IMG/VR virus record: IMGVR_UViG_3300036792_000267
Coordinates: 32,001-96,000 of that record
Strand: one strand, 5' to 3'
DNA length: 64,000 nucleotides
Source of the DNA: a virus
Part shown: piece after piece, positions 6,430 to 59,200 of the stretch
Layout of the letters: each line of letters begins with the position of its first letter
How positions within the stretch are numbered: position 1 is the stretch's first letter
The notes under the pieces: model-generated
Databases searched by the model: none
Told to the model about the DNA's origin: nothing
The model's input: the letters and a program-made list of their open reading frames with translations, nothing else
Position numbers and translations under genes: made by a program

Positions 6430-6941
6430 ACCGCATGTTCTTGAGGACCGCCGTCGGCTTCGACCTGGACAGCACGCTGTGCGACACGCGGCACCGCTGG
6501 CACCTGTCGCCGATGGCTGACCCGGAGTCAAGCTGGGCCGTGTACTGCGCAGCGCGGACGGGCGACACGCCTATTGCCGGCACCGTGGCTGCGGCCAGGC
6601 TGCATTACCTGTATAACCAGATCCACATCTGGTCAGGCAGTGAGTCGTCATCGGATGCGGTGACCCGCCGGTGGCTGAACCGTCACCGGGTCCCGTTTGA
6701 CGACCTCCGGCAGCGCCCGCTCGGCGACGACCGGCCCAACGCCGAGGTCAAGATCGGCTTCATCGAGGAGCTGCGGGCCCGCGGCATCGAGACGGTGCTG
6801 TACTTCGAGGACATTCCGGACGTGGCCGCGGAGATCCACGAGAAGACCGGCGTTCCCGTCCTGGTCGTCAACCCCTGCTATCCCGAGGACCTGGATAAGT
6901 TCCGGCACGGCGTGCACGACGGCATGGGCGGCGGCTTGTGA
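6426..6941 (+). CDS. HAD-family phosphatase (PNK 3'-phosphatase-like)
   Basis: FDLDSTL motif I, SG, K, FED motif IV. Confidence 0.75.
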   Translation: MNRMFLRTAVGFDLDSTLCDTRHRWHLSPMADPESSWAVYCAARTGDTPIAGTVAAARLHYLYNQIHIWSGSESSSDAVTRRWLNRHRVPFDDLRQRPLGDDRPNAEVKIGFIEELRARGIETVLYFEDIPDVAAEIHEKTGVPVLVVNPCYPEDLDKFRHGVHDGMGGGL

Positions 6942-7165
6942 GCGAGTGCAAGCACGAGATCGAGGAGGTGACCTGCTCGATGTGCCGTCCCAGGCACGCG
7001 ACGCAGGCGAGAGCCACCCGGTCCCCGGCGTTCGGCCCGTGGATTGTCGCCAGCTATGACGGTGAGTGCGCGGGCGGTTGCGGCCAGGGGGTTCGACGGG
7101 GTGACCAGATCCGGTCCGATGGCGCAGGGAACTGGCTATGCACGATCTGCGGGAACGACCAGTGA
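6938..7165 (+). CDS. Small Cys-rich protein
   Basis: CxH, CxxC motifs; GTGA overlaps on both sides. Confidence 0.55.
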   Translation: MSECKHEIEEVTCSMCRPRHATQARATRSPAFGPWIVASYDGECAGGCGQGVRRGDQIRSDGAGNWLCTICGNDQ

Positions 7166-7197
7166 GCGACAACGGGACGCTCCGGCTGAGCTGGTCG
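7162..7197 (+). pseudogene. Orphaned original N-terminus of the exonuclease gene (MSDNGTLRLSWS)
   Basis: Duplicates the DDGALRLSWS segment at 7770-7799 on the far side of the endonuclease gene. Confidence 0.7.
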
Positions 7198-7219
7198 CCG
7201 TGTACCGTACACTCCTGGT

Positions 7220-7792
7220 GTGAAGACTTATGTACCAGGAGTGCCCCGAACTTGCAGTCGCTGCCATAAGTCCGACAGTGAAGTTGAGTTCCCGCCATAC
7301 CGTTCGGCTTACTGCGTTGTTTGCCGACCGCTGGCCAAGCAGGACTGGGCTGTCGGCAGCCGGACGACCATCCGTATTCAGGAGAGTGCTCAGCGGCTGG
7401 CCCGTCATCAGCGCGATCCGGACGGGGAGTGGCGTAAGGAACTGGACAAGCACTTGCGGTCTAAGTTCCATATCACGGTTGACGACTATGACCGGATGTA
7501 TGAAGCTCAGCACGGTCTGTGTGGTATTTGCGGGAAACCAGGTCGCGGGTCTGCCAGATTCGATGGCAGCGAAAGGCGTCTTGCTGTTGACCATGACCGA
7601 CGTTGTTGCCCTGGTGACAAGTCCTGCGGGAAGTGTGTTCGCGGCCTTCTCTGTGGGTCGTGTAACCCTAAGCTCGGTTTTTACGAGCTGTTCGAGAATC
7701 AATGTCAGTCCTGGCGGAACCGCCGTGTTCAAGTGGAGGAGGTGGTGCTAGATGTCCGGAAAGATTGGCGACGACGGAGCCCTGCGGCTTAG
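7220..7792 (+). CDS. Endonuclease VII-family homing endonuclease
   Basis: Q..LCGIC, LAVDHDRRCC, VRGLLCxxCN; lower GC. Confidence 0.85.
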   Translation: MKTYVPGVPRTCSRCHKSDSEVEFPPYRSAYCVVCRPLAKQDWAVGSRTTIRIQESAQRLARHQRDPDGEWRKELDKHLRSKFHITVDDYDRMYEAQHGLCGICGKPGRGSARFDGSERRLAVDHDRRCCPGDKSCGKCVRGLLCGSCNPKLGFYELFENQCQSWRNRRVQVEEVVLDVRKDWRRRSPAA

Positions 7793-8589
7793 TTGGTCCC
7801 GCCTCCGGCTTCATTTAGCATGACGAGTGCCCCGCTAAAGGGGACCTGCTGCGCAAGCACAAGTCGCCGGTGCAGGACGCGCGCAACTACTTTCACGGCA
7901 ACGTGGTTGACCTGGCCATGCGCCGCTGGCTGAGCCAGGAGGACCCGGAGGCCGGGTGGATGGCCGCCCAGGTCGACGCGATCTTCGATGAGTCCATCGG
8001 CATCGCCAGGGACTCTGGTGACGGCATCGTCCGGTGGAAAGGCCCCAACGACAAGAACGAGACCCGCGAGTTCTGCCGCGAGCTGGTGAAGCGGCTGGAG
8101 CCTATCCTGTGCAAGTACGCTATCCCGTTTGAGTGGCAGCCCGCGGAGCGGTTCTCTGTGCCCCTCCGGATCGAGGACCTGAACGGGTCGATGCGCGAGA
8201 TCATCCTCATCGGCGAGATGGACTTGCTGGTGCGTGACCGCGAGGGGCGGTACGCGGTCTGGGACCTGAAGGCGACCAGGGACAACAGCTACTACAAGAA
8301 GGTGCTCGGCCAGCTCGCGTTCTACGCCATCGCCGTGAAGGCGATGAAAGGCCAGTTCCCGGTGATGACGGGACTGATTCAGCCGATGTGCGACCAGCGG
8401 GTGCTCCCGGTCACCGTCGACCATGACGCGGTAGCCCAGATGGCTGGCCGCATTACCAAGGCCGCCCGCGACATCTGGGCCGGCAAGCTCGCCCCAAAAG
8501 CTGACAATGCCGGGTGCGCGTACTGCCCGGTGAAGCACGCCTGCCCCAAGTTCAGCTCCGGCGGCCGGGCAGCCCTGGCTGCGGCGTAG
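7752..8589 (+). CDS. PD-(D/E)xK RecB/Cas4-like exonuclease; needs a 7-nt bypass at 7815-7821
   Basis: Strong SD + ATG 7752; SWS..H-D-E-CP N-terminal motif restored only by hopping CAT TTA G CAT; GEMD, DLK, QLAFY, CAYCPVKHAC. Confidence 0.85.
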
Positions 8590-24196: not shown

Positions 24197-24270
24197 AGGG
24201 GTGTAGCTCAGTAGGTCAGAGCAGCGGTCTCCAAAACCGTGTGCCGCGGGTTCGAATCCCTCCTCCCCTG
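24197..24270 (+). tRNA. tRNA-Trp(CCA)
   Basis: Cloverleaf; loop CT CCA AA. Confidence 0.9.
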
Positions 24271-24566
24271 CGACCGTCAGCAACGGCGAGAGCCTGAGCA
24301 GGCGCATGTCAACCGCATATTGACACTTCCACAGCGTGAGCATCTGCGGCGGGCGCCAACCCGCCGCAAGTTTCGGCGTGGTGAAAGACAATGCAGCTAC
24401 TCCCGGGGAGCAGCAGCCGTTAAAGGCTGGGGTCGCCGCAAGGCGGTCCTGTACCGGGCACCGTGCCAGTTTGAAAGCTTGCCGTGCCGTCATCAGGCGG
24501 AGTACACGGCAGCCAAGCGTGACGGCCGGGGCCGCGTTCACACCGTGGTCTCGCCGTCGCGCCTAT

Positions 24567-24639
24567 GGGGTCTTAGCTCAGCTGGAAGAGCATCTGCTCG
24601 GCAGACAGAAGGTCACGGGTTCAAGTCCCGTAGGCTCCA
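24567..24639 (+). tRNA. tRNA-Ala(GGC)
   Basis: G3:U70; loop TC GGC AG (C33). Confidence 0.8.
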
Positions 24640-24775
24640 CTGGACCGGATGGCAAGTCTGTCGCCATGTGTAGAGGGCCGTGACGGGTACCTCAGCGGCG
24701 GTTATACCGAAAGCCGGGTGTCTCCGGTGGCAAAGCGGCAGGTTTCGCGGGACATCTCCGTCATCCGGTTCTCCT

Positions 24776-24848
24776 GGGGCTTTAGCGCAGCTGGTAGCGC
24801 GCTGCATTCGCACCGCAGAGGCCGCGGGTTCGACTCCCGCAAGCTCCA
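24776..24848 (+). tRNA. tRNA-Ala(CGC)
   Basis: G3:U70; loop TT CGC AC. Confidence 0.88.
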
Positions 24849-25124
24849 CGTGGCGGACCGTGGCACGGCATCCGCAGCAGGGCCGATCACCCTGTGCACA
24901 GGTAACCGGCCTTGAATGCCCGGCGCGAGTCCAAGCGTCCGGGGCGGAGGCACCCGCCACTCCAATTCCCGGTGAGTAAGCCGTGGCAGGCTGAGGGGCC
25001 GGGGCAATGCGGAACAAGGCACGTGCTGGTCTGCCCCGTCGGTTCCAACCTCCGGGCCTGCTGGCCAAGGTCGCCTCGCCAGGCGGCTGATGCGGCGATG
25101 CAGGACCATGACGACCAGATTCAA

Positions 25125-25198
25125 CTAGCTATGGCGCAGCTTGGTAGCGCATCGCGTTCGGGACGCGAGGGCCGCAGGTTCAAATCCTGCTAGCCAGA
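25125..25198 (+). tRNA. tRNA-Pro(CGG)
   Basis: Loop TT CGG GA. Confidence 0.88.
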
Positions 25199-25199
25199 C

Positions 25200-25274
25200 T
25201 GGGGTGTAGGGAAGATTGGTCATCCCGCCTGCCTTGGGTGCAGGAGATCGCCGGTCCGAGTCCGGTCACCCCGA
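25200..25274 (+). tRNA. tRNA-Pro(TGG)
   Basis: Loop CT TGG GT; T-loop TCCGAGT. Confidence 0.82.
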
Positions 25275-25320
25275 CCCGTGTGAGTCAACCGACACACGTA
25301 AATCCCCATCGGTTGAGCCT

Positions 25321-25394
25321 GGGGCCTTAGCTCAGTTGGTAAGAGCGTCTGGTTGAAACCCGGAAGGTCGGTGCGTCGAGTGCACCAGGTCCCA
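25321..25394 (+). tRNA. tRNA-Phe(GAA)
   Basis: Loop TT GAA AC; atypical T-loop GTCGAGT. Confidence 0.82.
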
Positions 25395-25408
25395 CGCAGT
25401 AACACAAT

Positions 25409-25481
25409 GGGGATGTGGCCGAGCGGCTACAGGCTCCTGCCCTCCAAGCAGGCTACGCGGGTTCGATTCCCGTCATCCCCT
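25409..25481 (+). tRNA. tRNA-Gly(TCC)
   Basis: Loop CC TCC AA (C33); U73. Confidence 0.82.
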
Positions 25482-25588
25482 CTGGTACGGGCCAGACTCA
25501 TAATCTGGTTGCGTGCAAGCGGCTGTCGCGCCGCGGCCGGGCCGCCTGACGGGGGGCGACACCTTCGTCAGGGGCGCCGGTTGTTTAC

Positions 25589-25661
25589 GTGCCGCTAACT
25601 CAATTGGCAGAGTACCGTCCTCTTAAGTCGGGAGTTGGGGGTTCAAGTCCCTCGCGGCGCA
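25589..25661 (+). tRNA. tRNA-Lys(CTT)
   Basis: Loop CT CTT AA. Confidence 0.88.
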
Positions 25662-25744
25662 CTGGAGGCGGTCCGGAGACCGCGCCCGTGGCTGACAACG
25701 ACGTACAGGTCTCCTGCTGTCAGCGGGCCCGCCTCCAGCTTTTC

Positions 25745-25820
25745 GGGCGAGTAGCAGAACCGGCATATGCGGCGGCCTCAAAACCCGTGTCTCCTGCGGG
25801 TTCAAGTCCCGCCTCGCCCA
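25745..25820 (+). tRNA. tRNA-Leu(CAA)
   Basis: Loop CT CAA AA; short variable arm. Confidence 0.82.
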
Positions 25821-25917
25821 CGCGGCTGGCAAGGCCGTTCTGCGAATCCTTGCCCGGTCCCCTCTGCGGGAGGAACAGGTCCGTCAATCCGGGGTCAGCA
25901 AAGAGCCTCGGCAACTA

Positions 25918-25989
25918 TGGAGTATGGGGTAATCGGCAGCCCGGCAGATTCTGGCTCTGTCAGTCTTGGTTCGAGTCCAGGTACTCCAG
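25918..25989 (+). tRNA. tRNA-Gln(CTG)
   Basis: Loop TT CTG GC. Confidence 0.9.
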
Positions 25990-26108
25990 CGAGAGCAGCA
26001 GGTCAAGGTGCATCTCGATCTCGTCATTGGTGATGAGGCTGACAGCCAGGTCGATGAAGTCAAGTTCGTCCATACTCATTAAGTTCGCGAGCAGGCCGAA
26101 CTGTGAGG

Positions 26109-26654
26109 TCAGTCAGGAACGTAGAGGTGGTGCGGGAGGATGTTCAGCGTGTAAGTCCCGTCGAACCGCGGCATGCTGCCGGCCAGCTCCCCCAGGTGCC
26201 AGTAGACGTGGACCGCTAGGTGCTCCCACACGGCCCCGCCGGTCAGCAGGGACACCGGCACCCCGGCAGGCGCGGGAGCGTCCCACTGGCTGAGGTCGAA
26301 CTCGTCCAGTACCCGCAGCGCCTTGGTGACCGTCTGGCAGAACACGCGCAGCAGGACCACCTTCGGGAACGTCTCCCGGTCGACGCTGGCTGCCTTGCTG
26401 ACGGCACTGGGCTCGGCCAGGTTTGTCTCGTTGAACACCTGGTGGACCGAGCGGCTGAGGACCGTCCGCCGCCCGTCGAGCCACGAGCTGAACAGGTCAG
26501 CCACGCAGGCCAGGTGCCCGATCGTCCAGGCAGCGGAGAACCCGGTCGGGAGTTCTTCGAAGAACTCGTCGTTACTGACCGGCTCCAGGCCGAGTAGCAG
26601 TATGTTGCCGCTGCGGTCGATCTGCCGCGCGACGACTTGCTTAGCAGTAGTCAT
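26109..26654 (-). CDS. DinB/YfiT-like protein
   Basis: SAAWTIGHLA and HVYWHLGEL His motifs; CGTAGTA motif 5 nt upstream of ATG. Confidence 0.8.
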   Translation of the reverse strand: MTTAKQVVARQIDRSGNILLLGLEPVSNDEFFEELPTGFSAAWTIGHLACVADLFSSWLDGRRTVLSRSVHQVFNETNLAEPSAVSKAASVDRETFPKVVLLRVFCQTVTKALRVLDEFDLSQWDAPAPAGVPVSLLTGGAVWEHLAVHVYWHLGELAGSMPRFDGTYTLNILPHHLYVPD

Positions 26655-26665
26655 GCTTTTACTAC

Positions 26666-26739
26666 GCCCCGGTAGCTCAGCCGGAAGATGCGCTCGCTTC
26701 GTAAGCGAGAGGTCCCCAGTTCAACTCTGGGTCGGGGCT
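26666..26739 (+). tRNA. tRNA-Thr(CGT)
   Basis: Loop TT CGT AA. Confidence 0.85.
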
Positions 26740-26859
26740 CGGTCAGGCTGAGGCAGGGGAGGCCCTTCACCGGGTCGCACTAGGTTGCCCGCAGCCCAGT
26801 AGCTTGGGCACGGGAGAAGGATGCCGGGCAGCACGGCCCGGGTGTAGGCCTGACAACAA

Positions 26860-26943
26860 GCCCGAATGCTGCAATCGGTAGACTGACCCGCTTGAGGAGT
26901 GGGTGTCCTTCGGGGCGTGCGGGTTCGAGTCCCGCTTCGGGCA
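26860..26943 (+). tRNA. tRNA-Leu(GAG)
   Basis: Loop TT GAG GA; long variable arm. Confidence 0.88.
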
Positions 26944-27040
26944 CCTGGGGGAGATCCGGTGTAGCGCACCGGCTGGGGGCCAGGGCCCCTGGTAGTTCAA
27001 AAGTCGCTGACAGCCCTGGCAGAAAGAACACCCCCTCTAC

Positions 27041-27113
27041 GCCGGCTTAGCTCATCGGGCAGAGCGCCCGCCTTGTAAGCGGAAGGTGACCCGTTCGAGT
27101 CGGGTAGCCGGCT
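27041..27113 (+). tRNA. tRNA-Thr(TGT)
   Basis: Loop CT TGT AA. Confidence 0.88.
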
Positions 27114-27213
27114 CGGAGGCTGCATGCAAGGTACGGCGCGCTAACGCGCGGGACAGCGCAGGAACCCGAGTACCGTCGTAAACCGACTGTCCTTGCAGCC
27201 TCCTTCAGCTCGC

Positions 27214-27287
27214 TCCGGGGTGGGTTGTGCGGCATCCCGTCTTGACTTTGGATCAAGGGCACGCCAGTTCGATTCTGGCCCCCGGAA
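27214..27287 (+). tRNA. tRNA-Gln(TTG)
   Basis: Loop CT TTG GA; divergent D arm. Confidence 0.78.
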
Positions 27288-27296
27288 CAAGCACAT

Positions 27297-27370
27297 GCCC
27301 CGGTAGCTCAGTTGGCGAGAGCGTTTCCCTGGTACGGAGGAGGTCCCGCGTTCGATTCGCGGTCGGGGCT
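27297..27370 (+). tRNA. tRNA-Thr(GGT)
   Basis: Loop CT GGT AC. Confidence 0.88.
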
Positions 27371-27381
27371 CGCAAGATCAT

Positions 27382-27454
27382 GCCGACGTGGTGCAGCTGG
27401 TGGCACATCGCCTTGCCAAGGCGGAGGTCGCGGGTTCGAATCCCGTCGTCGGCT
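27382..27454 (+). tRNA. tRNA-Gly(GCC)
   Basis: Loop TT GCC AA. Confidence 0.88.
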
Positions 27455-27590
27455 CGTGTACCCCGCCGTGGCCACCGGGTAAGGGGGTTCAGCACATGCC
27501 CGGGTCGCGCCCGGCACGGTGGCACGGCTGCCCTGGCAGCCTGCTCTCCTGACGACAGGGGACAAGGGGGCTCAGCCCTCCCAGGGACGC

Positions 27591-27674
27591 GGGCGGGTGG
27601 CGGAATAGGCAGACGCGCACGGTCCAGGCCCGTGTATCCCGCAGGATGTGAGGGTTCAAGTCCCTCCTCGCCCA
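27591..27674 (+). tRNA. tRNA-Leu(CAG)
   Basis: Loop TC CAG GC (C33); long variable arm. Confidence 0.86.
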
Positions 27675-27765
27675 CTTTCGGGTCCGCTCCCGTGGCCCGG
27701 GGGCGTCGCGCATCGCGCCGCGGCGGTTCCAGTCCTCCTGCTAGCGGAGGGCGAACGGGAGGCCC

Positions 27766-27856
27766 GGAGGGATGGCACGAGTGGCTTAAGGCGCTGTCCT
27801 GCTAAGGCAGAGGGTCTGCGAGAGCGGCCCCGCGGGTTCGAATCCCGCTCCCTCCG
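27766..27856 (+). tRNA. tRNA-Ser(GCT)
   Basis: Loop CT GCT AA; long variable arm. Confidence 0.88.
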
Positions 27857-27941
27857 CTTCTGTACCGGATACCAGCCAAGTCCGTTAGGTGGTGACGCAG
27901 GTACAGCGCCCGCGGGAGACGGCAATCCTTGGCGGGCACCT

Positions 27942-28027
27942 GGAGGGTTCGCCTAGTCCGGCCTATGGCGCTGCGTCGGAAGCGCAGTTGGTTAACAGCC
28001 TCGCGAGTTCGAATCTCGCACCCTCTG
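27942..28027 (+). tRNA. tRNA-Ser(GGA)
   Basis: Loop TC GGA AG (C33). Confidence 0.85.
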
Positions 28028-28031
28028 CCCC

Positions 28032-28122
28032 GGAGAGGTAAATCGAGTTGGCCTACCGATCGCGGTCCCGAAAACCGTCAGGGGGTTCGTCCCCCGTGTG
28101 AGTTCGAGTCTCACCCTCTCTG
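28032..28122 (+). tRNA. tRNA-Ser(CGA)
   Basis: Loop CC CGA AA (C33); long variable arm. Confidence 0.82.
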
Positions 28123-28315
28123 CGCATGGCTTGAGGCGGTACCCGCGGGCCGCTGCAGGTACCGCCTCCGTAATCGCCAGGCGAATGAATCTGCTCGGAT
28201 TCAGCTTCGAGACCAGACTCGGTGCCTTGCAGGCGGCTGTTACCGCCTGCACCCGAAAGCATACATACGGTTACGATCTTGAGCAAGCGGCGAAATAGCT
28301 CAAGATGTCTGGCAC

Positions 28316-28388
28316 GGGCGGGCAGCTCGATGGTTCGAGCAGCTTCCTGATACGGAGAAGGTTGGAGGTTCAAGTCCTCCTCCGCCCA
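28316..28388 (+). tRNA. tRNA-Ile(GAT)
   Basis: Loop CT GAT AC; C at position 8. Confidence 0.82.
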
Positions 28389-28399
28389 CGTACGACCGG

Positions 28400-28473
28400 A
28401 GGCCGGTAGCTCAGCTGGTCAGAGCGACACGCTTATAACGTGTGCGTCAGGAGTTCAAGCCTCCTCCGGCCTA
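28400..28473 (+). tRNA. tRNA-Ile(TAT)
   Basis: Loop CT TAT AA. Confidence 0.85.
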
Positions 28474-28476
28474 CGA

Positions 28477-28552
28477 CGCGGGGTAGCTCAGTTGGCAGAG
28501 CAGCCGGCCCATAACCGGAAGGTCGCGGGTCCGAGTCCCGTCCTCGCTACCA
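28477..28552 (+). tRNA. tRNA-Met(CAT)
   Basis: Loop CC CAT AA (C33); 1:72 mismatch; encoded CCA. Confidence 0.82.
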
Positions 28553-28553
28553 C

Positions 28554-28627
28554 GGGCCGCTAGCTCAACAGCGAAGAGCAGTTGCCTTTTAAGCTTCAGG
28601 TTCCGGGTTCGAGCCCCGGGCGGCCCA
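28554..28627 (+). tRNA. tRNA-Lys(TTT)
   Basis: Loop CT TTT AA. Confidence 0.85.
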
Positions 28628-28778
28628 CTAGCCTGGTTCCTGTGAAGACTCTGGCCTGGCTCCTCGATGAAGCCCTGGACCGGCTCCCGTGCCGCGAGGA
28701 CGGCCGGTGGCGCTGGTACGGCGAGTGGGGCTGCCGACTGGAGAACAGGTTTCCTGTCCTGCGCGAGTGGATGTACGA

Positions 28779-28852
28779 GCGCCGGTAGCTCAGCCGGATA
28801 GAGCGGCTTCCTTCTAAGAAGACGGCCGGGGGTTCGAATCCCTCCCGGCGCG
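28779..28852 (+). tRNA. tRNA-Arg(TCT)
   Basis: Loop CT TCT AA. Confidence 0.88.
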
Positions 28853-28863
28853 CGCATGAACAT

Positions 28864-28941
28864 GGTCTTGCAGAGCAGTCCGGAGTGCTCGCCTGCCCCT
28901 CAAGCAGGAGATCGTCGGTTCGAATCCGTCCAGGACCACCA
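28864..28941 (+). tRNA. tRNA-Glu(CTC)
   Basis: Loop CC CTC AA (C33); C8; encoded CCA. Confidence 0.8.
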
Positions 28942-28942
28942 A

Positions 28943-29016
28943 GCCCCCGTCGACTAGCGGCCTAAGTTACCGCCCCTTCAAGGCGGCGGACACCGGTTCG
29001 AATCCGGTTGGGGGCA
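28943..29016 (+). tRNA. tRNA-Glu(TTC)
   Basis: Loop CC TTC AA (C33). Confidence 0.85.
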
Positions 29017-29050
29017 CGTGGGCATCAGGATTTATCCTGGTGTCCTTCGA

Positions 29051-29126
29051 CGCGGAGTAGGGGAGTTCGGTCGTCCCCGCGGCGCCCATAACGCCGAGAT
29101 CGCGGGTCCGAATCCCGCCTCCGCCA
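29051..29126 (+). tRNA. tRNA-Met(CAT), initiator-like
   Basis: C1:C72 mismatch; loop CC CAT AA (C33). Confidence 0.82.
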
Positions 29127-29230
29127 CGGGAAGGAACTGCCCAGCTCCCTTGCATCCGGATGCATCGGCACGCGCGGCTGGCGTTCCGGCACAGCGGCCC
29201 GGCCCCGGTCGTTCCCAAACGGGGCCTCTA

Positions 29231-29303
29231 TCCGGTGTGGCGCAATCGGCAGCGCAACTGACTGTTAATCAGAGGGTTCCCGGTCCGAGTCCGGGCACCG
29301 GAG
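29231..29303 (+). tRNA. tRNA-Asn(GTT)
   Basis: Loop CT GTT AA. Confidence 0.88.
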
Positions 29304-29412
29304 CGCGTGGGCCTGGGGCCTGCGGGATACAGCCTGGTCCGCGGCCGGGCCCGGGTCCCGTTGGGCGGAGAAGCAGCCATACCCAGGGAAGCGGGGGTGC
29401 CCCGCACATCAT

Positions 29413-29487
29413 GGTGACGTAACTCAGCATGGCCAGAGTGCTGCCTTGTCACGGCAGAAGTCGCGGGTTCAAATCCCGTCGTTACCG
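29413..29487 (+). tRNA. tRNA-Asp(GTC)
   Basis: Loop TT GTC AC. Confidence 0.9.
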
Positions 29488-29831
29488 CGTGCCCCGTCGT
29501 CGCACGATGACCGTGCAGGCCAGGGCGAACAGCGCTAGCAGGCCGATGACTGGCCATGTTAGCCAGTGCAGCCCGGCCGCCTTCAGCAGGTCATCAAGGA
29601 TGAAGCCGAGCGCGACGCCGACCAGGATGAACAGCATCGTTAGCCGAGCCCGGCGCGACGCCGCCGCTCGGCGTGCTCGAAGTCACGGATGCGCCGGATG
29701 GCGAGGTGGCCGCCGAACTTGAGGCCGGTCGCGATGCCAGCGCCGAAGACGGCTAGCAGCAAGATGAAAGTGCCCACGTGATTAAACGGTACGTCACCCC
29801 CTGGTCTCTTTACCAGGGGCAAGCAAGACAT

Positions 29832-29905
29832 GGCCGTGTAGCTCAGCAGGCTAGAGCGTTTCCATGACACGGAAGAGGTCCCTGGTTCAAGTCCAGGTAC
29901 GGCCA
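29832..29905 (+). tRNA. tRNA-Val(GAC)
   Basis: Loop AT GAC AC. Confidence 0.88.
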
Positions 29906-29906
29906 C

Positions 29907-29979
29907 GCGCGCGTAGCTCAACGGATAGAGCTGCAGTCTACGGAACTGTGTGTTGGAGGTTCGAGTCCTCTCGTGCGCA
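29907..29979 (+). tRNA. tRNA-Arg(ACG)
   Basis: Loop CT ACG GA. Confidence 0.9.
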
Positions 29980-30039
29980 CTGGACGGCAGGTGAGCAGGC
30001 TGACACCGCCTTCGGGCTCAGCCCCCTGCCGTCTTTCAA

Positions 30040-30113
30040 GTCCGGTTAGCTCAGCCTGGGAGAGCGCTGCCTCCACACGGCAGGCGTCGGGGGTTCAAAT
30101 CCCTCACTGGACA
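30040..30113 (+). tRNA. tRNA-Val(CAC)
   Basis: Loop TC CAC AC (C33). Confidence 0.85.
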
Positions 30114-30114
30114 C

Positions 30115-30190
30115 GGTGGGATTTGCCGTCGAGGGAAGGCGCAGGGTTGTGGTCCCTGCAAGGCGGGTCCGACTCCCGTATCTCACCCCA
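30115..30190 (+). tRNA. tRNA-His(GTG)
   Basis: Loop TT GTG GT; G-1; encoded CCA. Confidence 0.82.
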
Positions 30191-30191
30191 A

Positions 30192-30271
30192 AGCGACAGT
30201 GGGCGGCGGCACGCCCAGCGGCCTGTAAAGCCGTGGCCTTGGCAGACCTGGGTCGGCACCAGGTGTCGCTA
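30192..30271 (+). tRNA. tRNA-Tyr(GTA), atypical
   Basis: Loop CT GTA AA; intact acceptor stem; aberrant D and T loops. Confidence 0.7.
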
Positions 30272-30364
30272 CGTTAAGGTTTTCCCGAGAAAAGGAGAGC
30301 CTATGCCCAGGTACACGATTCCCTGCGTCGCCCACTGTGAAAGCGGGGCATTAACGCAGGTCTT

Positions 30365-30438
30365 GCGCTCGTAGCTCAGTGGACAGAGCACCGGCTTCCG
30401 GAGCCGGGTTGTCGGAGGTTCGAGTCCTCTCGGGCGCG
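30365..30438 (+). tRNA. tRNA-Arg(CCG)
   Basis: Loop TT CCG GA. Confidence 0.9.
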
Positions 30439-30442
30439 CTAT

Positions 30443-30519
30443 GGCGGTATGGCCGAGTGCGGTTCAGGCACACGTCTGCAAAACGTGGTACCCGGGTTCG
30501 ACCCCCGGTACCGCCTCCA
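30443..30519 (+). tRNA. tRNA-Cys(GCA)
   Basis: Loop CT GCA AA; U73; encoded CCA. Confidence 0.88.
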
Positions 30520-30520
30520 T

Positions 30521-30594
30521 GACCCTGTAGCTCAGCTGGACAGAGCTGCTTCCCCCTAAGGAGCGAGTCGCTGGTTCGAGTCCAGCCAGGGCCA
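30521..30594 (+). tRNA. tRNA-Arg(CCT)
   Basis: Loop CC CCT AA (C33). Confidence 0.82.
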
Positions 30595-30903
30595 CGTACG
30601 CCGGTGCTCACGCTGTGGCAGTTCCGAGGTCCAATTACTCCCCGTCGTCCCCTGGGACTGGCGGGGATTTTCCTTGTGCTTATGGTGTAAGGCAGGAGGC
30701 CGGGTACGTGACTCGGCTTCGCGGATCGAGAACGGAACCGGCCTCCTGCCCCATCAGAGTACATTCGCCTCATTGTCCCGGTTCATCCCGTAGCCCGGGT
30801 TTGGTCACGGTTCAGTTAACTTGTGGCAAGAAACACGGTTCCTGCGCCATAGTGGACTGTTTCCCCGCGGTCAGCGCGGGGGTTGGAGTGAGGGGAACGC
30901 TCT

Positions 30904-38762: not shown

Positions 38763-39470
38763 TTAGGCGGCGGCCTCTAGCGCCATCCGGGCCTGGTGCC
38801 GCTCTATGTAGTCGGCTGCAGCCCGTAGCAAGTCGGGGTCGTCGTTGAACATGCCGAGAGCGACGTTGAGGTTCCGGCGGATTAGCCCGCGTAGGCATTT
38901 CCCGCAGCTCCGGTCACCGGGACAGCAACTGCGGTCGTGATCGACGGCGAGGGGGTAAACCTTGCCGGTGCGCTTGCTGACCGAGGTCTCAGGTCGGCCG
39001 CTGATCTCGCAGACGCCGGCCTGCTCAGCTAGTTTTTGGTCGTACCAGCCTGGCGGAAGGCTGTAGACACGATCTCGGTTCTTGGCCCCTTCGCCGTTTG
39101 CGCTGAGGCAGTCCCAGCATTTCCGGCGGTTCTGGTGAGTGGGGTTCACTCTGCAGGTGGCGCAGAGTTTCCCTTGCGCCCGGCAAGCTCCGCACTCGTT
39201 GCGCTCCTTGTCGCCGGGGCTCTTATCTCGCCCGCAGGTAACGCACTTGATTCGGCAGGCCGGGCAACGTTGAGCCTTTGCTCGGTTGTTGCCGCGGTAG
39301 GGCTGGCCGCATGATTCGCAGGGGCGTTCAGCTGTGGCGTATCCGCTGCGCTTACGGACTTTGGCGGCGGCGCACAGGGAGCAGTACGAGCTGAGGGCTC
39401 CTGATGGATAGCGGTGCCGTGGCCGCGTTTTGCAGGTCGGGCAGATGGGTTCGTTTCCGGAGACATTCAC
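38763..39470 (-). CDS. Endonuclease VII-family homing endonuclease with N-terminal Cys repeats
   Basis: LAVDHDRSCCPGDRSCGKCLRGL..N.ALG.F.DDP.LLR.A..Y. Confidence 0.85.
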   Translation of the reverse strand: MNVSGNEPICPTCKTRPRHRYPSGALSSYCSLCAAAKVRKRSGYATAERPCESCGQPYRGNNRAKAQRCPACRIKCVTCGRDKSPGDKERNECGACRAQGKLCATCRVNPTHQNRRKCWDCLSANGEGAKNRDRVYSLPPGWYDQKLAEQAGVCEISGRPETSVSKRTGKVYPLAVDHDRSCCPGDRSCGKCLRGLIRRNLNVALGMFNDDPDLLRAAADYIERHQARMALEAAA

Positions 39471-39637: not shown

Positions 39638-40883
39638 GTGAGCCCGATCCCTGACATCAGTCTTTTGGAGCCCGTAGTGCTCCGAGGGGTCGTTTTAAGT
39701 TGAGAAGTTTGTAACGCCAGAAACGTTGCTGCTGCTCAACCGCCTGGACCAGACCCCGTGGCCCTTCCCGTCCGCCACCTGGGACGTGGTGAAGGGATCG
39801 AGAGCGGTCGCCAAGCCGAACGTGCCCAACTCTGAGGCGCACATCATCTCCCGGCTCGGCAGGAGCCAGGAAAGCGCGAGCTTCATCTACTTGCGCGAGA
39901 AGAAGGTCTTTGAGCCGACCACGCTGCACTGGCTGCGGACGCCGGGCGAGATCGCCCGCATCAACGCCGAGCGCGCGGTGCTGAGGGAGATCAACGACCT
40001 CAACCAGCGGTTCGACAACTTCGCCGAGTGGAGCGCCTGGCAAGCGCTGGGCGGCGCGATCCAGTACAACTACGGCGACGTCCAGGCCCTGGTGGACTAC
40101 AAGTTCCCGCGCAGCCACTTCGTCACCCCGGCCACGCCGTGGGTCACTAACACCGCGCTCGGCTACTACACCACCGGCGGCGCCACCGCGGCCGGCGCGG
40201 GAACCAACAGCGGCCAGCCGGGCCAGCCGACCACCCTGGGCCAGGCCCAGACCTCGCTGACCGCGGCCGGCGGCACCATCACCTACGCGACCCCGGTGTC
40301 GATCATCGAAGACGTGCGGTCGTGGAAGCGGCTGCTGGCCGTGCACGGCCGGGTGCCGGCGAAGGAAGTTTTCGCCACCAGCGTCACCATGGCCGGCCTG
40401 ATGGAAGCGTGGGTGTCCGCCACGCAGGCGTCTACCGTGTCGATCCCGGCGACCATGATGAGCGACCGGATGAAGGACGAATTTTACTCGACCGGCATCA
40501 TGACCGGCTTCATGGGCCTCGTCTGGACCACGGTGGAGCAGGTCTTCGAGTCCGACCTCGGCAACCTGACCTTCTTCGTGCCGGATGGCATGATCTACCT
40601 GGGCAACTACACCGACCAGCGGCCAGTGGAGGTCCTGGTCGGCCCGACTGCCGACGACGAGGCCCCCGAAGGTTTTACCGGAAAATATGCCAAGACCTGG
40701 AAGGAGAAGGACCCGTCCGCTCGTCAGTACCTGTTGGAGTGGCACATGCTCCCGATCATCACCAGGCCTGAGCAGATGCTGGTAGCCACCAACGTCATCT
40801 CTGCGGGCGGCAGCGTCACCGTCCCGGCCGGCTACTACAACGGCGGGGCCGGCACTGGCGGAAGCAACGCGCCGGTCGACTAG
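39638..40883 (+). CDS. Major capsid protein; needs a 7-nt bypass at 39695-39701; start GTG 39638 or ATC 39647
   Basis: Lambda E-like pattern, follows decoration gene; N-terminal PDISLLEPVVLRGVV joins EKFVTPETL only by hopping GTT TTA A GTT. Confidence 0.85.
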
Positions 40884-55528: not shown

Positions 55529-56230
55529 ATGGTACGTAATTCATCAATGCTGTCCGACGAGTCTTGGCTGCGCGAGCGCTACCTCGTTGACGAACTGTCC
55601 ACCACCGCCATTGCGGCGCTGGCCAACTGCTCTCAGGCCACGGTGTGCAACCGGCTGGCCGGGTACGGAATCCCGCGGCGTCCCCGAGGTCGCTTTACGC
55701 AGAGCCGGATCGACGCTGACGGCCGAGAGTGCACGGCTTGCGGTGACTACAAAGCGTGGAACGAGTACTCGCCTAGCAAGCCGACGCAGCCAGGCGGCCG
55801 GTACTCCGTCTGCAAGGTCTGCTGGAACGGCACGCGCGGTGGCGGCCCCGGTAACCGGAATGGCGAGTACCGTGCGTGGGCACTCAAGCGCATGGGCATC
55901 ACGCAAGCCGAGTACGACTGGCTGCTAGCCCTGCAGAAGGGCGTGTGCGCTCTCCATGGTGGCCCGGAGACTAGGAAGGGTGCGCTGTACCTTTCCGTCG
56001 ACCACGACCACAACTGCTGTCCGCCGGTAAAGGTCGGGCAGACCCGGTGCTGCAAGAAGTGCATCCGCGGCCTGCTCTGCCACGACTGCAACCACATGGT
56101 CGGCCTAGCTGAGAAGCTAGGTCAGGCGTGGCGGTTCCCTGATTACCTGGGCTCGCGCCCCTTCATGGGGAAGGGGGTGGTGCTCATGACGCCTTATTCT
56201 GAGCCTCTGAGCCACAGTTGTGGCTTATGA
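55529..56230 (+). CDS. Endonuclease VII-family homing endonuclease with N-terminal HTH
   Basis: WLRERY..LST..IA, LSVDHDHNCC, IRGLLCHDCN. Confidence 0.85.
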   Translation: MVRNSSMLSDESWLRERYLVDELSTTAIAALANCSQATVCNRLAGYGIPRRPRGRFTQSRIDADGRECTACGDYKAWNEYSPSKPTQPGGRYSVCKVCWNGTRGGGPGNRNGEYRAWALKRMGITQAEYDWLLALQKGVCALHGGPETRKGALYLSVDHDHNCCPPVKVGQTRCCKKCIRGLLCHDCNHMVGLAEKLGQAWRFPDYLGSRPFMGKGVVLMTPYSEPLSHSCGL

Positions 56231-59200
56231 GGGACCAGAATACTGGTTAGATCGCTTTGGTATGTAATTTACAAGGCGATCGGTTTAACATTCAGGTGAC
56301 TTCGGCGACCTGATGCGGGACGCGGCGCAGGCTAAGGCCGCGCTGCAGGGGATGGGCGATGCGGCCAAGGCGGAGACCGCGGCCGAGGTGGCGGGCGCGA
56401 CCCAGGCCGCCGCCGCGCGCGGCAAGGGCATCACGTCCATCCAGCAGGAGACGCAGGCCCTTAACCAGCTCGCCAACGCCGCCAAGCAGACCAACGTCCA
56501 GCTGCTCTACGGCGGCCGGAATGACATGACCCAGCACCTGAGCGACCTGGCTCAGGAGCTGAACTACACCACCTTGCTCAACCGGCAGAAGTGGCTCGGC
56601 TTCTCCTCCGTCCAGCAGGCCATGTCGTACCGCCAGCAGATGTATAACCTGGCGCTGCTGGAGAACAAAGCGCACTTCGCCGGCTACCTGACCGCGGACC
56701 AGTACCTGGGCTTCCTGCAGCGCGAGACCGCCCAGACCGCGGCGCTGTCGGCCGCCATCCGCGACCGCAGCGCGGCCATCGGCGCCGAGACCCAGATGCT
56801 GCTCGCGCACGCCAACGCGCTGCAGGGCACCCACGCGACGGCAGGCAGCCTGGGCGAGGGCCTGAGCACGGTCAACGCCTACAACGTGGCGCTGGTCGGG
56901 CTGCCGGACACGGTGGTCACCAAGGCCGTCCTTGATGACAGCCAGGCGATGTCGCAGCTGGCTGCCTACCGCGCGGCGCTGACCTCGCTTCCCAACGCGG
57001 AGACCACCGACATCACCTCGGTTGCCACCCGGCTGGGCGGCGTCCCGCTGACGGGCGCGCGCCAGGCGGTGCCGGTCAGCGTCCGCCCCGAGATCGACTA
57101 CGCCGCGATCAACAAGATGCTGTCCCAGGCGGTCGCCGGGGCGCACCCGGAGGCGCTGCGCGCGCCGCTGGCCATCACCGGGTCGGGAGCGGCGGATTCC
57201 GCGCTGTCGGCCACGGCGGATTCCGCGCTGTCGGCCACGGCGGACGACGCCGGCGCGCTGTCGGCGTCCATGTCCGAGCTGAGCGACAAGGCGGCCATTT
57301 CCGCCGAGGCAATCAGCAAGTTCCAGGACTCCCTCGCGCTGGCCGCGGTCGACGCCCGCGCGCTGGAGCAGGGACTCGGGCGCCTGTCGGCCGCCGAGCA
57401 GCTGCTGTCTGAGGTTAACGCCCAGTTCGTGCCGCAGAAAGGCCGCAAGAAGGCGGCGGCTGCCGACCCGGCGCAGAACCTCGCTGACCTGTACGGGCTG
57501 CAGGACGTCGCCGGCGCGCTGCGCGAGGGCGCGATCTCCGACGCGCCGCGCGGCTACCCGCTGTCCGCCCCGGGCATGAAGATCATCCCGCCGACGCAGG
57601 CGGGAGAAGAAGACCTGTGGTCGGGGCTGTCCAAGTACATGCAGGGCGGCAAGGCCGCGGGGACTGCCACCGAGAAGGTTGCCGTCGAGGGCGGCCAGGA
57701 GGCCGAGGCGACCCTCGACAAGATCGCCGTCCAGATGGAGTGGCTGGACCATGAGGATGCCAAGCCGAAGCTAGAGCTGGAAGGCGGCCAGGAGGCGCTA
57801 GACGACGCCTACCACCTGGACGGCGTACTCGTCGGCCTGACTTACGAGCGCGCGGAGCCGGAAGTCGCCCTGCAAGGCGGAGCCGAGGCGCTGGGAGAAG
57901 TCACCGCCCTGGACGAGGGGCTGCACGAGATCCCGCACGAGACTGACACCGTCCTGGTGGTCGAGTCCTCCGGGGCCTCCAGCGAGGTCCGCGATTACAG
58001 CCGCGACATTGAGGACATCGAGCGTGAGGTGGGCACTCGCGCCGACTTCGAGGACACCGAGGCGGAGAGCGGGCTGTCGCGCTGGCTGACCGCCCTGGCT
58101 GCGGCGGTCCAGCACAAGTACGACTTCTACGCCAGCTTCAACGACGACGCGGCCAAGGCCGAGCTGGCCGGGTGGATCAGCGAGCTTGAGGCGGCACGCG
58201 CCGAGGAGAACCGCATCACCGCCGGCATGGGCGGTGCCTCCGGTGGCGGTGGCGGCGGAGGGCCGCCTGTTCCCCCTGCTGCCGCCGGCGACGCGCCCAA
58301 CCCGGATGACCGGGCGATGTGGGAGGCCGTCGCCGCCGAGATGGCCAAGGTAGACGCCCTCTTCAAGAACACCGGCCGTGACGCCGCTGCCGCCGGGGCC
58401 GCCGCGTCCAAGGCCGGCCGGGACGGCGCGCAGGCGGTCACCTCGATGGTGCTGCCGCTGACCAACGGCGCGCGCGGCTGGTTCGGCCTGCTCACCCAGG
58501 TCAACCTGTTCGGCGGCCTGCTGCCCGGCATCCTGGGCCACACCACGGCCCTGCACTTCGTCCTTGACGCGATCATCGAGACGATCGCCATCCTGCTGCC
58601 GGCCATCGTCACCATGGCAGCCGGGCTGACCGCGTTCGGCATCGCTGGCTACGACGCCGGCAAGGCGGTCTACGAGCGCCTGACGGCGATTCACACCGCG
58701 GCCGACGCCACCGGCCAGTCCATCCCGCCGCTGACCGGGAACCTGGAGAAGCTGCACGACACGGTGCGCCCGCAGGTCTGGCAGTTGTATGGCGACGCCA
58801 TCACCGTCGCGGGGGCGAAGTCCGGGCTCTTCAACCAGCTGGCCATCCAGACCGGGAACGTGGTCGACCGGCTGGCCGCGCGGCTGACGGTGGACCTGGT
58901 GCAGGGTGGCCAGGGGCTGAAGACGTTCCTGTCGGTCGGCGCGGAGAACCTGGCCAAGCTCGGCACCATCTTCGACAACCTCGGCAAGGCCCTGATGGCG
59001 TTCATCAAGGTCACCGAGGACACCCACATTGACCAGATTTTCCTGGCCATCTTCGTGGCGCTGTCCCAGTTCCTGGTGCTCATCACCAAGCTGCCCACCC
59101 CGTTGCTCGCCGCCGTGGTCGCGCTGCACGCGTTCTGGCTGTGGGGCGGCCTGCTGGCCACCGTGGTCCTGCAGATGCTCAACCCGCTGCGCTCGCTGGC

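Follow-up and report, generated by a model that had tools for sequence, protein, structure and literature searches.

A 64,000-nucleotide (nt) stretch of DNA, referred to here as the window, covers positions 32001-96000 of the genome of an uncultured soil virus (IMG/VR record IMGVR_UViG_3300036792_000267), which is 151,377 bp long and has direct terminal repeats and a G+C content of 68.4%. It contains a Cas4-like exonuclease gene, presumably for DNA repair, that is interrupted after codon 12, probably by a free-standing homing element of the endonuclease VII (EndoVII) family. This element is organised like the MobA/gene 60 cassette of phage T4, and with it comes a UUA hop gap of the type proposed for phage phiHau3. 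When the sequence was re-read, all of the features described in an earlier sequence-only reading of the locus were found in place. A megablast search of cultured phage genomes with this region returned no match, and the only hit to cultured phages by tblastn was a distant Microbacterium phage nuclease; hence there is no close cultured relative.

The coordinates given for the genes and codons of this locus refer to the plus strand. The native start of the exonuclease remains as a relic at 7162-7197, consisting of 12 codons that end in LRLSWS. Its GTG (7162) overlaps the stop codon of an upstream 75-amino acid open reading frame (ORF), a GTGA coupling, and after codon 12 its frame enters unrelated sequence, giving a dead-end ORF of 35 amino acids with a stop at 7267-7269. 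The inserted element, at approximately 7198-7821, comprises a left inverted repeat, the nuclease gene, a ribosome-binding site, an N-terminal extension and the coding gap. The inverted repeat (6 bp with a 1-nt spacer, 7200-7212) marks the left end; it is also present in the element of another lineage, L254, and half of it in that of L013. The nuclease gene (7220-7792) encodes a presumed homing endonuclease of 190 amino acids, and the 3' end of its ORF contains the Shine-Dalgarno box GGAGGAGG (7735-7742), 9 nt before an ATG at 7752 and unchanged in all eight other copies of the element. From this ATG runs the N-terminal extension (7752-7814) of 21 codons, which has a short unique part followed by LRLSWSRLRLH in codons that differ synonymously from those of the relic, and which ends at the take-off codon CAT (7812-7814). 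Next come the coding gap TTAG (7815-7818), placing a rare TTA in the A site and having a G that forms TAG in the +1 frame, and the landing codon CAT (7819-7821), overlapped by a frame-0 stop TGA at 7821-7823. The exonuclease body, of the PD-(D/E)XK type (7822-8589; PF12705, E = 1.6e-16), then follows in the +1 frame, as HDECP from 7819/7822, and resumes at GAC; its first iron-sulphur (Fe-S) cysteine lies three codons past the landing codon. The sequence-only reading had attributed a new Shine-Dalgarno sequence and a recoded copy of the N-terminus to the 3' end of the nuclease gene, and had placed CAT-TTAG-CAT shortly past the junction and before a conserved CP motif; both descriptions are borne out, the latter at 7812-7821.

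The nature of the interruption can be seen from relatives without the insert. In the 152-kb genome G001 the exonuclease gene is intact and GTGA-coupled to an upstream phosphatase gene, with no nuclease, duplication or TTA. The closest intact relative, P0001 on contig L012, has 93% protein identity, and its first 12 residues are identical to those encoded by the window relic, in agreement with the proposal that the EndoVII gene cut off an original start coupled to the gene upstream. The element (7198-7821) is absent from both G001 and L012. Thirteen insert-free loci (G001, L012 and eleven further IMG/VR loci) read uninterrupted at the DNA level and have no TTA insert; approximately 105 of the 120 homologues listed as best matches are full length, with the pattern SWS-R-x-R-x-H-DECP and a fixed spacing between SWS and DECP, as had been predicted for endonuclease-free relatives. 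None of these 120 has extra residues between the two motifs. On the 3' side of the gap the window has the unusual codons of L012, and on the 5' side it matches the element. It is this codon match on either side, together with the intact relatives, that identifies the relic as the native start of the recipient gene and the 7 nt as added sequence. The comparisons show that the element cut off the native, translationally coupled start and put its own ribosome-binding site, its own ATG and a recoded copy of the displaced residues in its place. The relic itself is limited to the window lineage and L256.

The arrangement recurs. Eight other metagenomic phage lineages bear the element before the exonuclease gene, the form in L256 being diverged, and the same element with the same 3' edge precedes the exonuclease in L013, L252/253, L254, L255, L259/260, L261 and L262/263. 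The order is always that of nuclease, ribosome-binding site, ATG, an extension ending in SWSRLRLH, CAT-TTAG, landing codon and then GAC GAG TGC. The 3' edge of the element coincides to within 2 nt across nine lineages, and the exonuclease bodies behind it come from different sublineages, with 67-85% nucleotide identity. All of the close homologues of the nuclease for which context was fetched lie immediately upstream of an interrupted exonuclease gene, and every truncated exonuclease call with fetched context led to the same nuclease-element arrangement. As the record is an uncultured viral genome assembled from a metagenome, an error of sequencing or assembly might be suspected, but the chance of this is practically nil: the 7-nt addition recurs at the identical position in the assemblies of more than ten unrelated samples from four data sources, which already refutes it. 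A contig from a second sample (Logan SRR11834592) has identical gene spacing and an equally truncated gene call. Scans of viral and metagenome collections with exact 14-nt patterns gave chance matches only, none of which proved related on re-screening, and a 24-nt degenerate pattern, run against IMG/VR and 185,579 prokaryote genomes, detected no additional copy and hence none in a prophage. The codon-TTA-spacer-codon motif was rejected as a diagnostic by itself, since genome-wide scans with it are dominated by ordinary gene junctions and palindromes; comparison with relatives is needed.

Several observations bear on whether the interrupted exonuclease is still a working gene. Across nine lineages, the copied N-terminal residues exhibit about a dozen synonymous codon states against a single Leu/Ile change; between L257 and the window, six of the eleven copied codons differ with no amino acid change. 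The DECPAKG segment directly after the gap also varies synonymously. All eight of the complete insert-bearing exonuclease bodies, meaning those whose contig reaches the stop, are open over 249-258 codons, and the ratio of non-synonymous to synonymous substitution rates (dN/dS) between the window and L012 bodies is 0.12; values between distant lineages are inflated by synonymous saturation and were not used. The codon comparisons show the sequence on both sides of the gap to be under protein-level selection. The exonuclease frame contains a TAG within the gap and lacks any start codon ahead of DECP, and therefore translation of DECP would have to initiate at the ATG at 7752, in another frame.

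An alternative is that the insert is a dead scar, the exonuclease being a pseudogene or a truncated protein made from an internal start without any recoding. Gene callers do place the start further downstream, namely at GTG 7870 in the window and, in relatives, at an internal ATG, and accessory nucleases can be dispensable. However, the eight complete insert-bearing bodies have remained intact despite a dS of about 0.5 between them, and protein-level selection extends to the N-terminal copy and to the DECPAKG segment, which precedes any internal start. Furthermore, the ATG used in relatives has no counterpart at that position in the window, and a truncated protein would lack the cysteine of DECP, which is the invariant N-terminal cysteine of the 4Fe-4S cluster: the four-cysteine pattern C...CxxCxxxxxC, with one N-terminal cysteine and a C-terminal CxxCxxxxxC, is found in 40 of 40 homologues. 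The same kind of insert is also borne by the major capsid gene of the same genome, for which being a pseudogene is not possible. It is therefore very improbable that the insert is a mere scar.

How the frame is restored can be considered from the variation at the junction. Every lineage with the insert has TTA after the take-off codon and a landing codon of the form C-purine-pyrimidine, which is CAT in two of the nine lineages (the window and one other), CAC in three and CGC in four. Ribosomes most likely hop over the TTAG gap, to judge from these sequences. With peptidyl-tRNA-His on CAU and a starved UUA in the A site, the ribosome would slide 7 nt; tRNA-His would then re-pair with the landing codon, and decoding would resume at GAC to give a product, RLRLH-DECP, colinear with uninterrupted homologues. 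Were the UUA decoded instead, translation would end two codons later. A hop fits best because the invariant TTA is also the rarest sense codon genome-wide (at most 0.83 per 1000, Leu here usually being encoded by CTG), with no tRNA-Leu-UAA in a phage set of 37 tRNAs that includes tRNA-His-GUG; because the landing codon varies only within the set able to pair with anticodon GUG; because the product is colinear with all homologues; because a +1 slip at CAT-T would meet TAG; and because the design equals that of the phiHau3 terminase gaps (GGC-TTA...GGT and TCT-TTA...TCC). As in those gaps, UUA lies directly 3' of the take-off codon, the gap has a length that cannot be divided by three, and the take-off tRNA is cognate to the landing codon.

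The main rival to the hop is a +1 frameshift, in which UUA and an Ala codon (GCA or GCG) would be read in frame 0 and one base skipped, giving H-L-A-DECP with two extra residues. The two variable positions would then be the third base of the Ala codon (A or G, synonymous) and the skipped base (T or C), and in the window the skipped base begins a TGA stop, a classic +1 stimulator. In most lineages, though, the shift site is CGA, with no stop; a tRNA-Ala would be unable to re-pair in the +1 frame; and GCC and GCT never occur at the Ala codon, despite the dominance of G+C-rich third positions. The frameshift also leaves unexplained the invariant use of a rare TTA over a common Leu codon. No extra residues are found before the Fe-S cysteine in any of the 120 homologues, and the same scheme fails for the TTA-led inserts of 13 and 14 nt in the tape measure gene and for the 10-nt gaps of phiHau3, all of which makes a frameshift unlikely. 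Two other candidates were rejected: a quadruplet reading of TTAG is ruled out by the 13-nt and 14-nt inserts, and an ATG at 7820, considered as a start, is in the wrong frame.

Some evidence nevertheless counts against a hop. The CGC landing codon of four of the nine lineages pairs with the GUG anticodon of tRNA-His only through a central G.U wobble, and both variable positions would equally fit a frame-0 Ala codon (GCA/GCG) followed by one skipped base. Starvation for UUA is assumed from the codon usage and tRNA set. Neither consensus nor single-sequence folds revealed an RNA structure with covariation support at the junction. The consensus fold has a 6-bp hairpin directly 5' of the take-off codon, with one-sided changes only, and in the minimum-energy single-sequence fold the start-codon region (7745-7754) pairs with 7812-7821 over 10 nt (z = -2.3); the latter two segments are invariant in all nuclease-bearing copies, and the pairing is lost in L257. 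Neither fold is relied on.

The 37 tRNA genes of this phage form a block at window positions 24197-30595, which serves many rare A-ending codons (Ile-UAU, Lys-UUU, Arg-UCU, Gln-UUG and Glu-UUC). This block includes tRNAs for all four take-off codons of the genome (His, Val, Trp and Gly-GCC).

The nuclease matches the Pfam family PF02945 (Endonuclease_7, with the H-N-H fold of T4 gp49) over residues 77-155 with an E value of 1.5e-13 and a score of 50.8 bits, the curated cut-off being 23.6. It has a Cys-rich N-terminal region with the EndoVII core at the C-terminus, and a start codon position shared with L013 and L254. Alignment to T4 endonuclease VII (PDB 1e7d/1en7) reveals that both CxxC pairs, the D-H-D residues and the catalytic Asn after the second pair are kept. 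In a mixed infection, such a nuclease would cut alleles that lack the insert, close to the conserved sequence coding for H-DECP, and the element would be copied in during repair; the 7-nt addition, made up of TTAG and a second His-type codon, would break the nuclease target in H-DECP and thereby shield carriers. We infer both cleavage and immunity by analogy. That the addition would act by disrupting the target is suggested because the gap is fixed at the edge of the element, because a second kind of element has recoded the same stretch, and because gap and nuclease are paired in the capsid gene.

The second kind of element is found in L014/L015 (2253-3070), where the same position in front of the exonuclease gene is taken by a different gene, of the HNH type. 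Here the HDECPAKG stretch is respelled in A/T-ending synonymous codons, and further on the conserved FFHGN motif contains a 6-nt insert, TTC-TTA-TTC, that keeps the frame. In L273 (1553-1975) and L265 (1545-2021), an EndoVII-family gene lies upstream of the phosphatase gene rather than before the exonuclease. The nuclease family thus occupies several sites in this gene block.

Within the block of the window, the 75-amino acid ORF between the phosphatase gene and the exonuclease relic (6938-7165) is Cys-rich and zinc-ribbon-like. It is found in L013, L253, L255 and L259, and not in G001, L012, L257, L261 or L262. The 8-nt sequence GTGAGCGA occurs at its own start and again at the start of the relic, as if this ORF had likewise been inserted at the exonuclease start codon.

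Similar cassettes are present elsewhere in the same genome. The major capsid gene contains a 7-nt GTT-TTAA-GTT insert (window 39692-39701, plus strand) 17 codons after its start, and its divergent neighbour is an EndoVII-family gene (38766-39470, minus strand). Both the capsid insert and the adjacent EndoVII gene are lacking in G001 and G002, and the ribosome-binding site of the window capsid gene differs from that in these two genomes, being stronger. A third EndoVII-family gene (55529-56230) ends with a TTA codon directly before the tape measure gene, which has two TTA-led inserts, of 14 and 13 nt, in its first 17 codons (56244-56297). The region of the tape measure inserts is common to G001 and G002, with an identity above that of its flanks, and all three of the substitutions in it are synonymous in the proposed hop frames. 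The chances seem even that TTA-led hop inserts form a module that gives self-immunity to a family of EndoVII (and HNH) homing elements invading conserved genes of high-G+C actinophages, in which case the genes for the exonuclease, the major capsid protein and the tape measure protein in this one genome would all have been targets.

Alternatively, the TTA gap may be primarily a regulatory switch operating on host tRNA-Leu-UAA, of the bldA type, with the nuclease an incidental neighbour or a delivery vehicle. In keeping with this, the gap is retained in L257/258 after loss of the nuclease, there is no nuclease beside the phiHau3 terminase gaps, a phage with 37 tRNAs pointedly has none for UUA, and decoding of the UUA leads to a stop within two codons. 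Such a role by itself does not account for the gap lying precisely at the 3' edge of the element in all lineages, nor for the gap and nuclease of the capsid gene being present or absent together, and the respelling of the same stretch by the HNH element of L014/015, with its in-frame TTA insert, points to alteration of a target site. A primarily regulatory switch is consequently possible but doubtful; regulatory and immunity roles are not mutually exclusive, and the two may coexist.

The age of the element can be judged from the divergence of its parts. Between lineages, nucleotide identity is 73-99% across the 87-nt junction, 64-87% in the nuclease gene and 67-85% in the exonuclease body; between the window and L013 the junctions are 99% identical and the nuclease genes just 75%. 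The junction has thus been held at the nucleotide level, in an element that is old and not freshly spread. The insert and the nuclease do not always stay together. In L257/258 the insert, ribosome-binding site and extension are kept, with no nuclease ORF but a 143-nt stub consisting of relic and nuclease tail; this is best read as a secondary loss of the nuclease, by analogy with MobA elements of the T4 type. Hence the expectation of the sequence-only reading that relatives without the endonuclease would lack the insert holds for the insert-free lineages, all of which are clean, but not for L257/258, in which CAT-TTAG-CAT is present without a nuclease; read as a secondary loss, this form does not refute it. 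Similarly, the interpretation of the insert as a footprint of insertion is supported by the relatives, but not as that of a single event, given an element that is old and widespread.

A number of results tell against the proposed element. Divergence among the nuclease genes (64-87% nucleotide identity) equals that among the phages and most pairs of lineages fit co-divergence, the sole clear incongruence being that of L261 and L262, with 87% identity in the nuclease and 69% in the exonuclease; because of this level of divergence, most copies must be old, and any recent mobility is putative. The second His of the D-H-D-H motif of the T4 enzyme is Arg in the window nuclease, as it also is in the translated copies of L259, L261, L262 and L256; the EndoVII paralogue linked to the tape measure gene retains this His. 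L273 has an element-like ribosome-binding site and N-terminus without either the insert or an adjacent nuclease. In L256 (150-900), the nuclease is 57% identical, the relic runs out at the same SWS codons, and CGG CTT is followed by a TTA-led insert of 5 nt, three codons upstream of the insertion point in the window; this insert has no matching landing codon at a frame-restoring distance and, like the CGC landing codons, is at odds with a simple hop between matched codons.

A MobA homing-endonuclease element associated with the gene 60 bypass has reportedly been described in phage T4 by Bonocora et al. (2011). To our knowledge, only two examples of bacterial programmed bypassing have been accepted or proposed, namely T4 gene 60 and the phiHau3 terminase with two prophage terminases. 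Free-standing homing endonucleases of the T-even phages, such as SegF and MobE, undergo intronless homing. The element described here would resemble these in having a nuclease gene beside or within its target gene and, by analogy, in spreading through break repair with co-conversion of the flanks. Unlike SegF and MobE, which are intergenic and need no recoding, it lies inside a coding sequence, such that the N-terminus must be rebuilt.

The MobA element consists of a nuclease, an N-terminal extension that includes a stretch homologous to the deleted target, and a bypass at the 3' edge; this bypass shields carriers from the nuclease, which has been lost in some cases with the bypass retained (Manning and Atkins, bioRxiv 10.1101/2022.08.31.505936). 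The window element shares with it a nuclease gene within a conserved gene, of which a few codons have been deleted and replaced by an element-encoded N-terminal extension with a homologous region, as well as a gap at the extreme 3' edge, presence and absence among close relatives, and nuclease-less derivatives that keep the gap. By contrast, the nuclease here is of the EndoVII family, the target is a Cas4-like exonuclease rather than a topoisomerase, the upstream remnant is a useless 12-codon stub rather than a functional subunit, and the hosts are putative high-G+C actinobacteria. Instead of the 50-nt gap of gene 60 there is a 4-nt gap (a displacement of 7 nt), the pause codon is a sense UUA rather than a stop after the take-off codon, and no take-off stem-loop or nascent-peptide signal was identified at the locus. 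The gap would thus resemble gene 60 in how it works, and is not a member of the gene 60 type.

In Streptomyces phage phiHau3 and two prophages, translation of the large terminase has been proposed to involve UUA-mediated bypassing (Smith et al. 2013; Antonov et al. 2023, PMC10732093). Such bypassing has partial experimental support in the phiHau3 terminase, and a regulatory role is the only one discussed in the papers on this phage (PMC10732093). The two systems have in common a UUA directly after the take-off codon, a short non-coding gap (7 or 10 nt there, 7 nt here), a landing codon read by the same tRNA, a product colinear with uninterrupted homologues and a high-G+C actinophage setting. 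However, there is no nuclease adjoining the phiHau3 terminase gaps, whereas the gap described here belongs to a nuclease element whose edges are defined, and turns up in many lineages and, within a single genome, in several genes; in four of the lineages, landing is on CGC, a wobble match. A literature search found no paper tying UUA-type gaps to homing nucleases. As the T4 cassette and the phiHau3-type bypass have each been published, it is their linkage at this locus that appears to be new.

The locus provides a natural series in which one short hop site occurs in around ten diverged forms, with the edges of the element defined. It is also a compact system, in which a segment of approximately 150 nt should suffice to study the hop, and a 190-amino acid nuclease with a short target to study cleavage. 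Because gene callers shorten such genes or miss the nuclease, these cassettes are invisible in current phage annotations. Homing-nuclease elements are suggested as a source of UUA-type gaps, as opposed to the purely regulatory origin in the literature. If the hop inserts do form a self-immunity module of such elements, UUA-triggered hopping would be widespread in nature as a decoding event, and its evolutionary origin would be defined; it would no longer be the curiosity of a single phage, and the expression of core phage genes would be tied to the supply of host tRNA-Leu-UAA.

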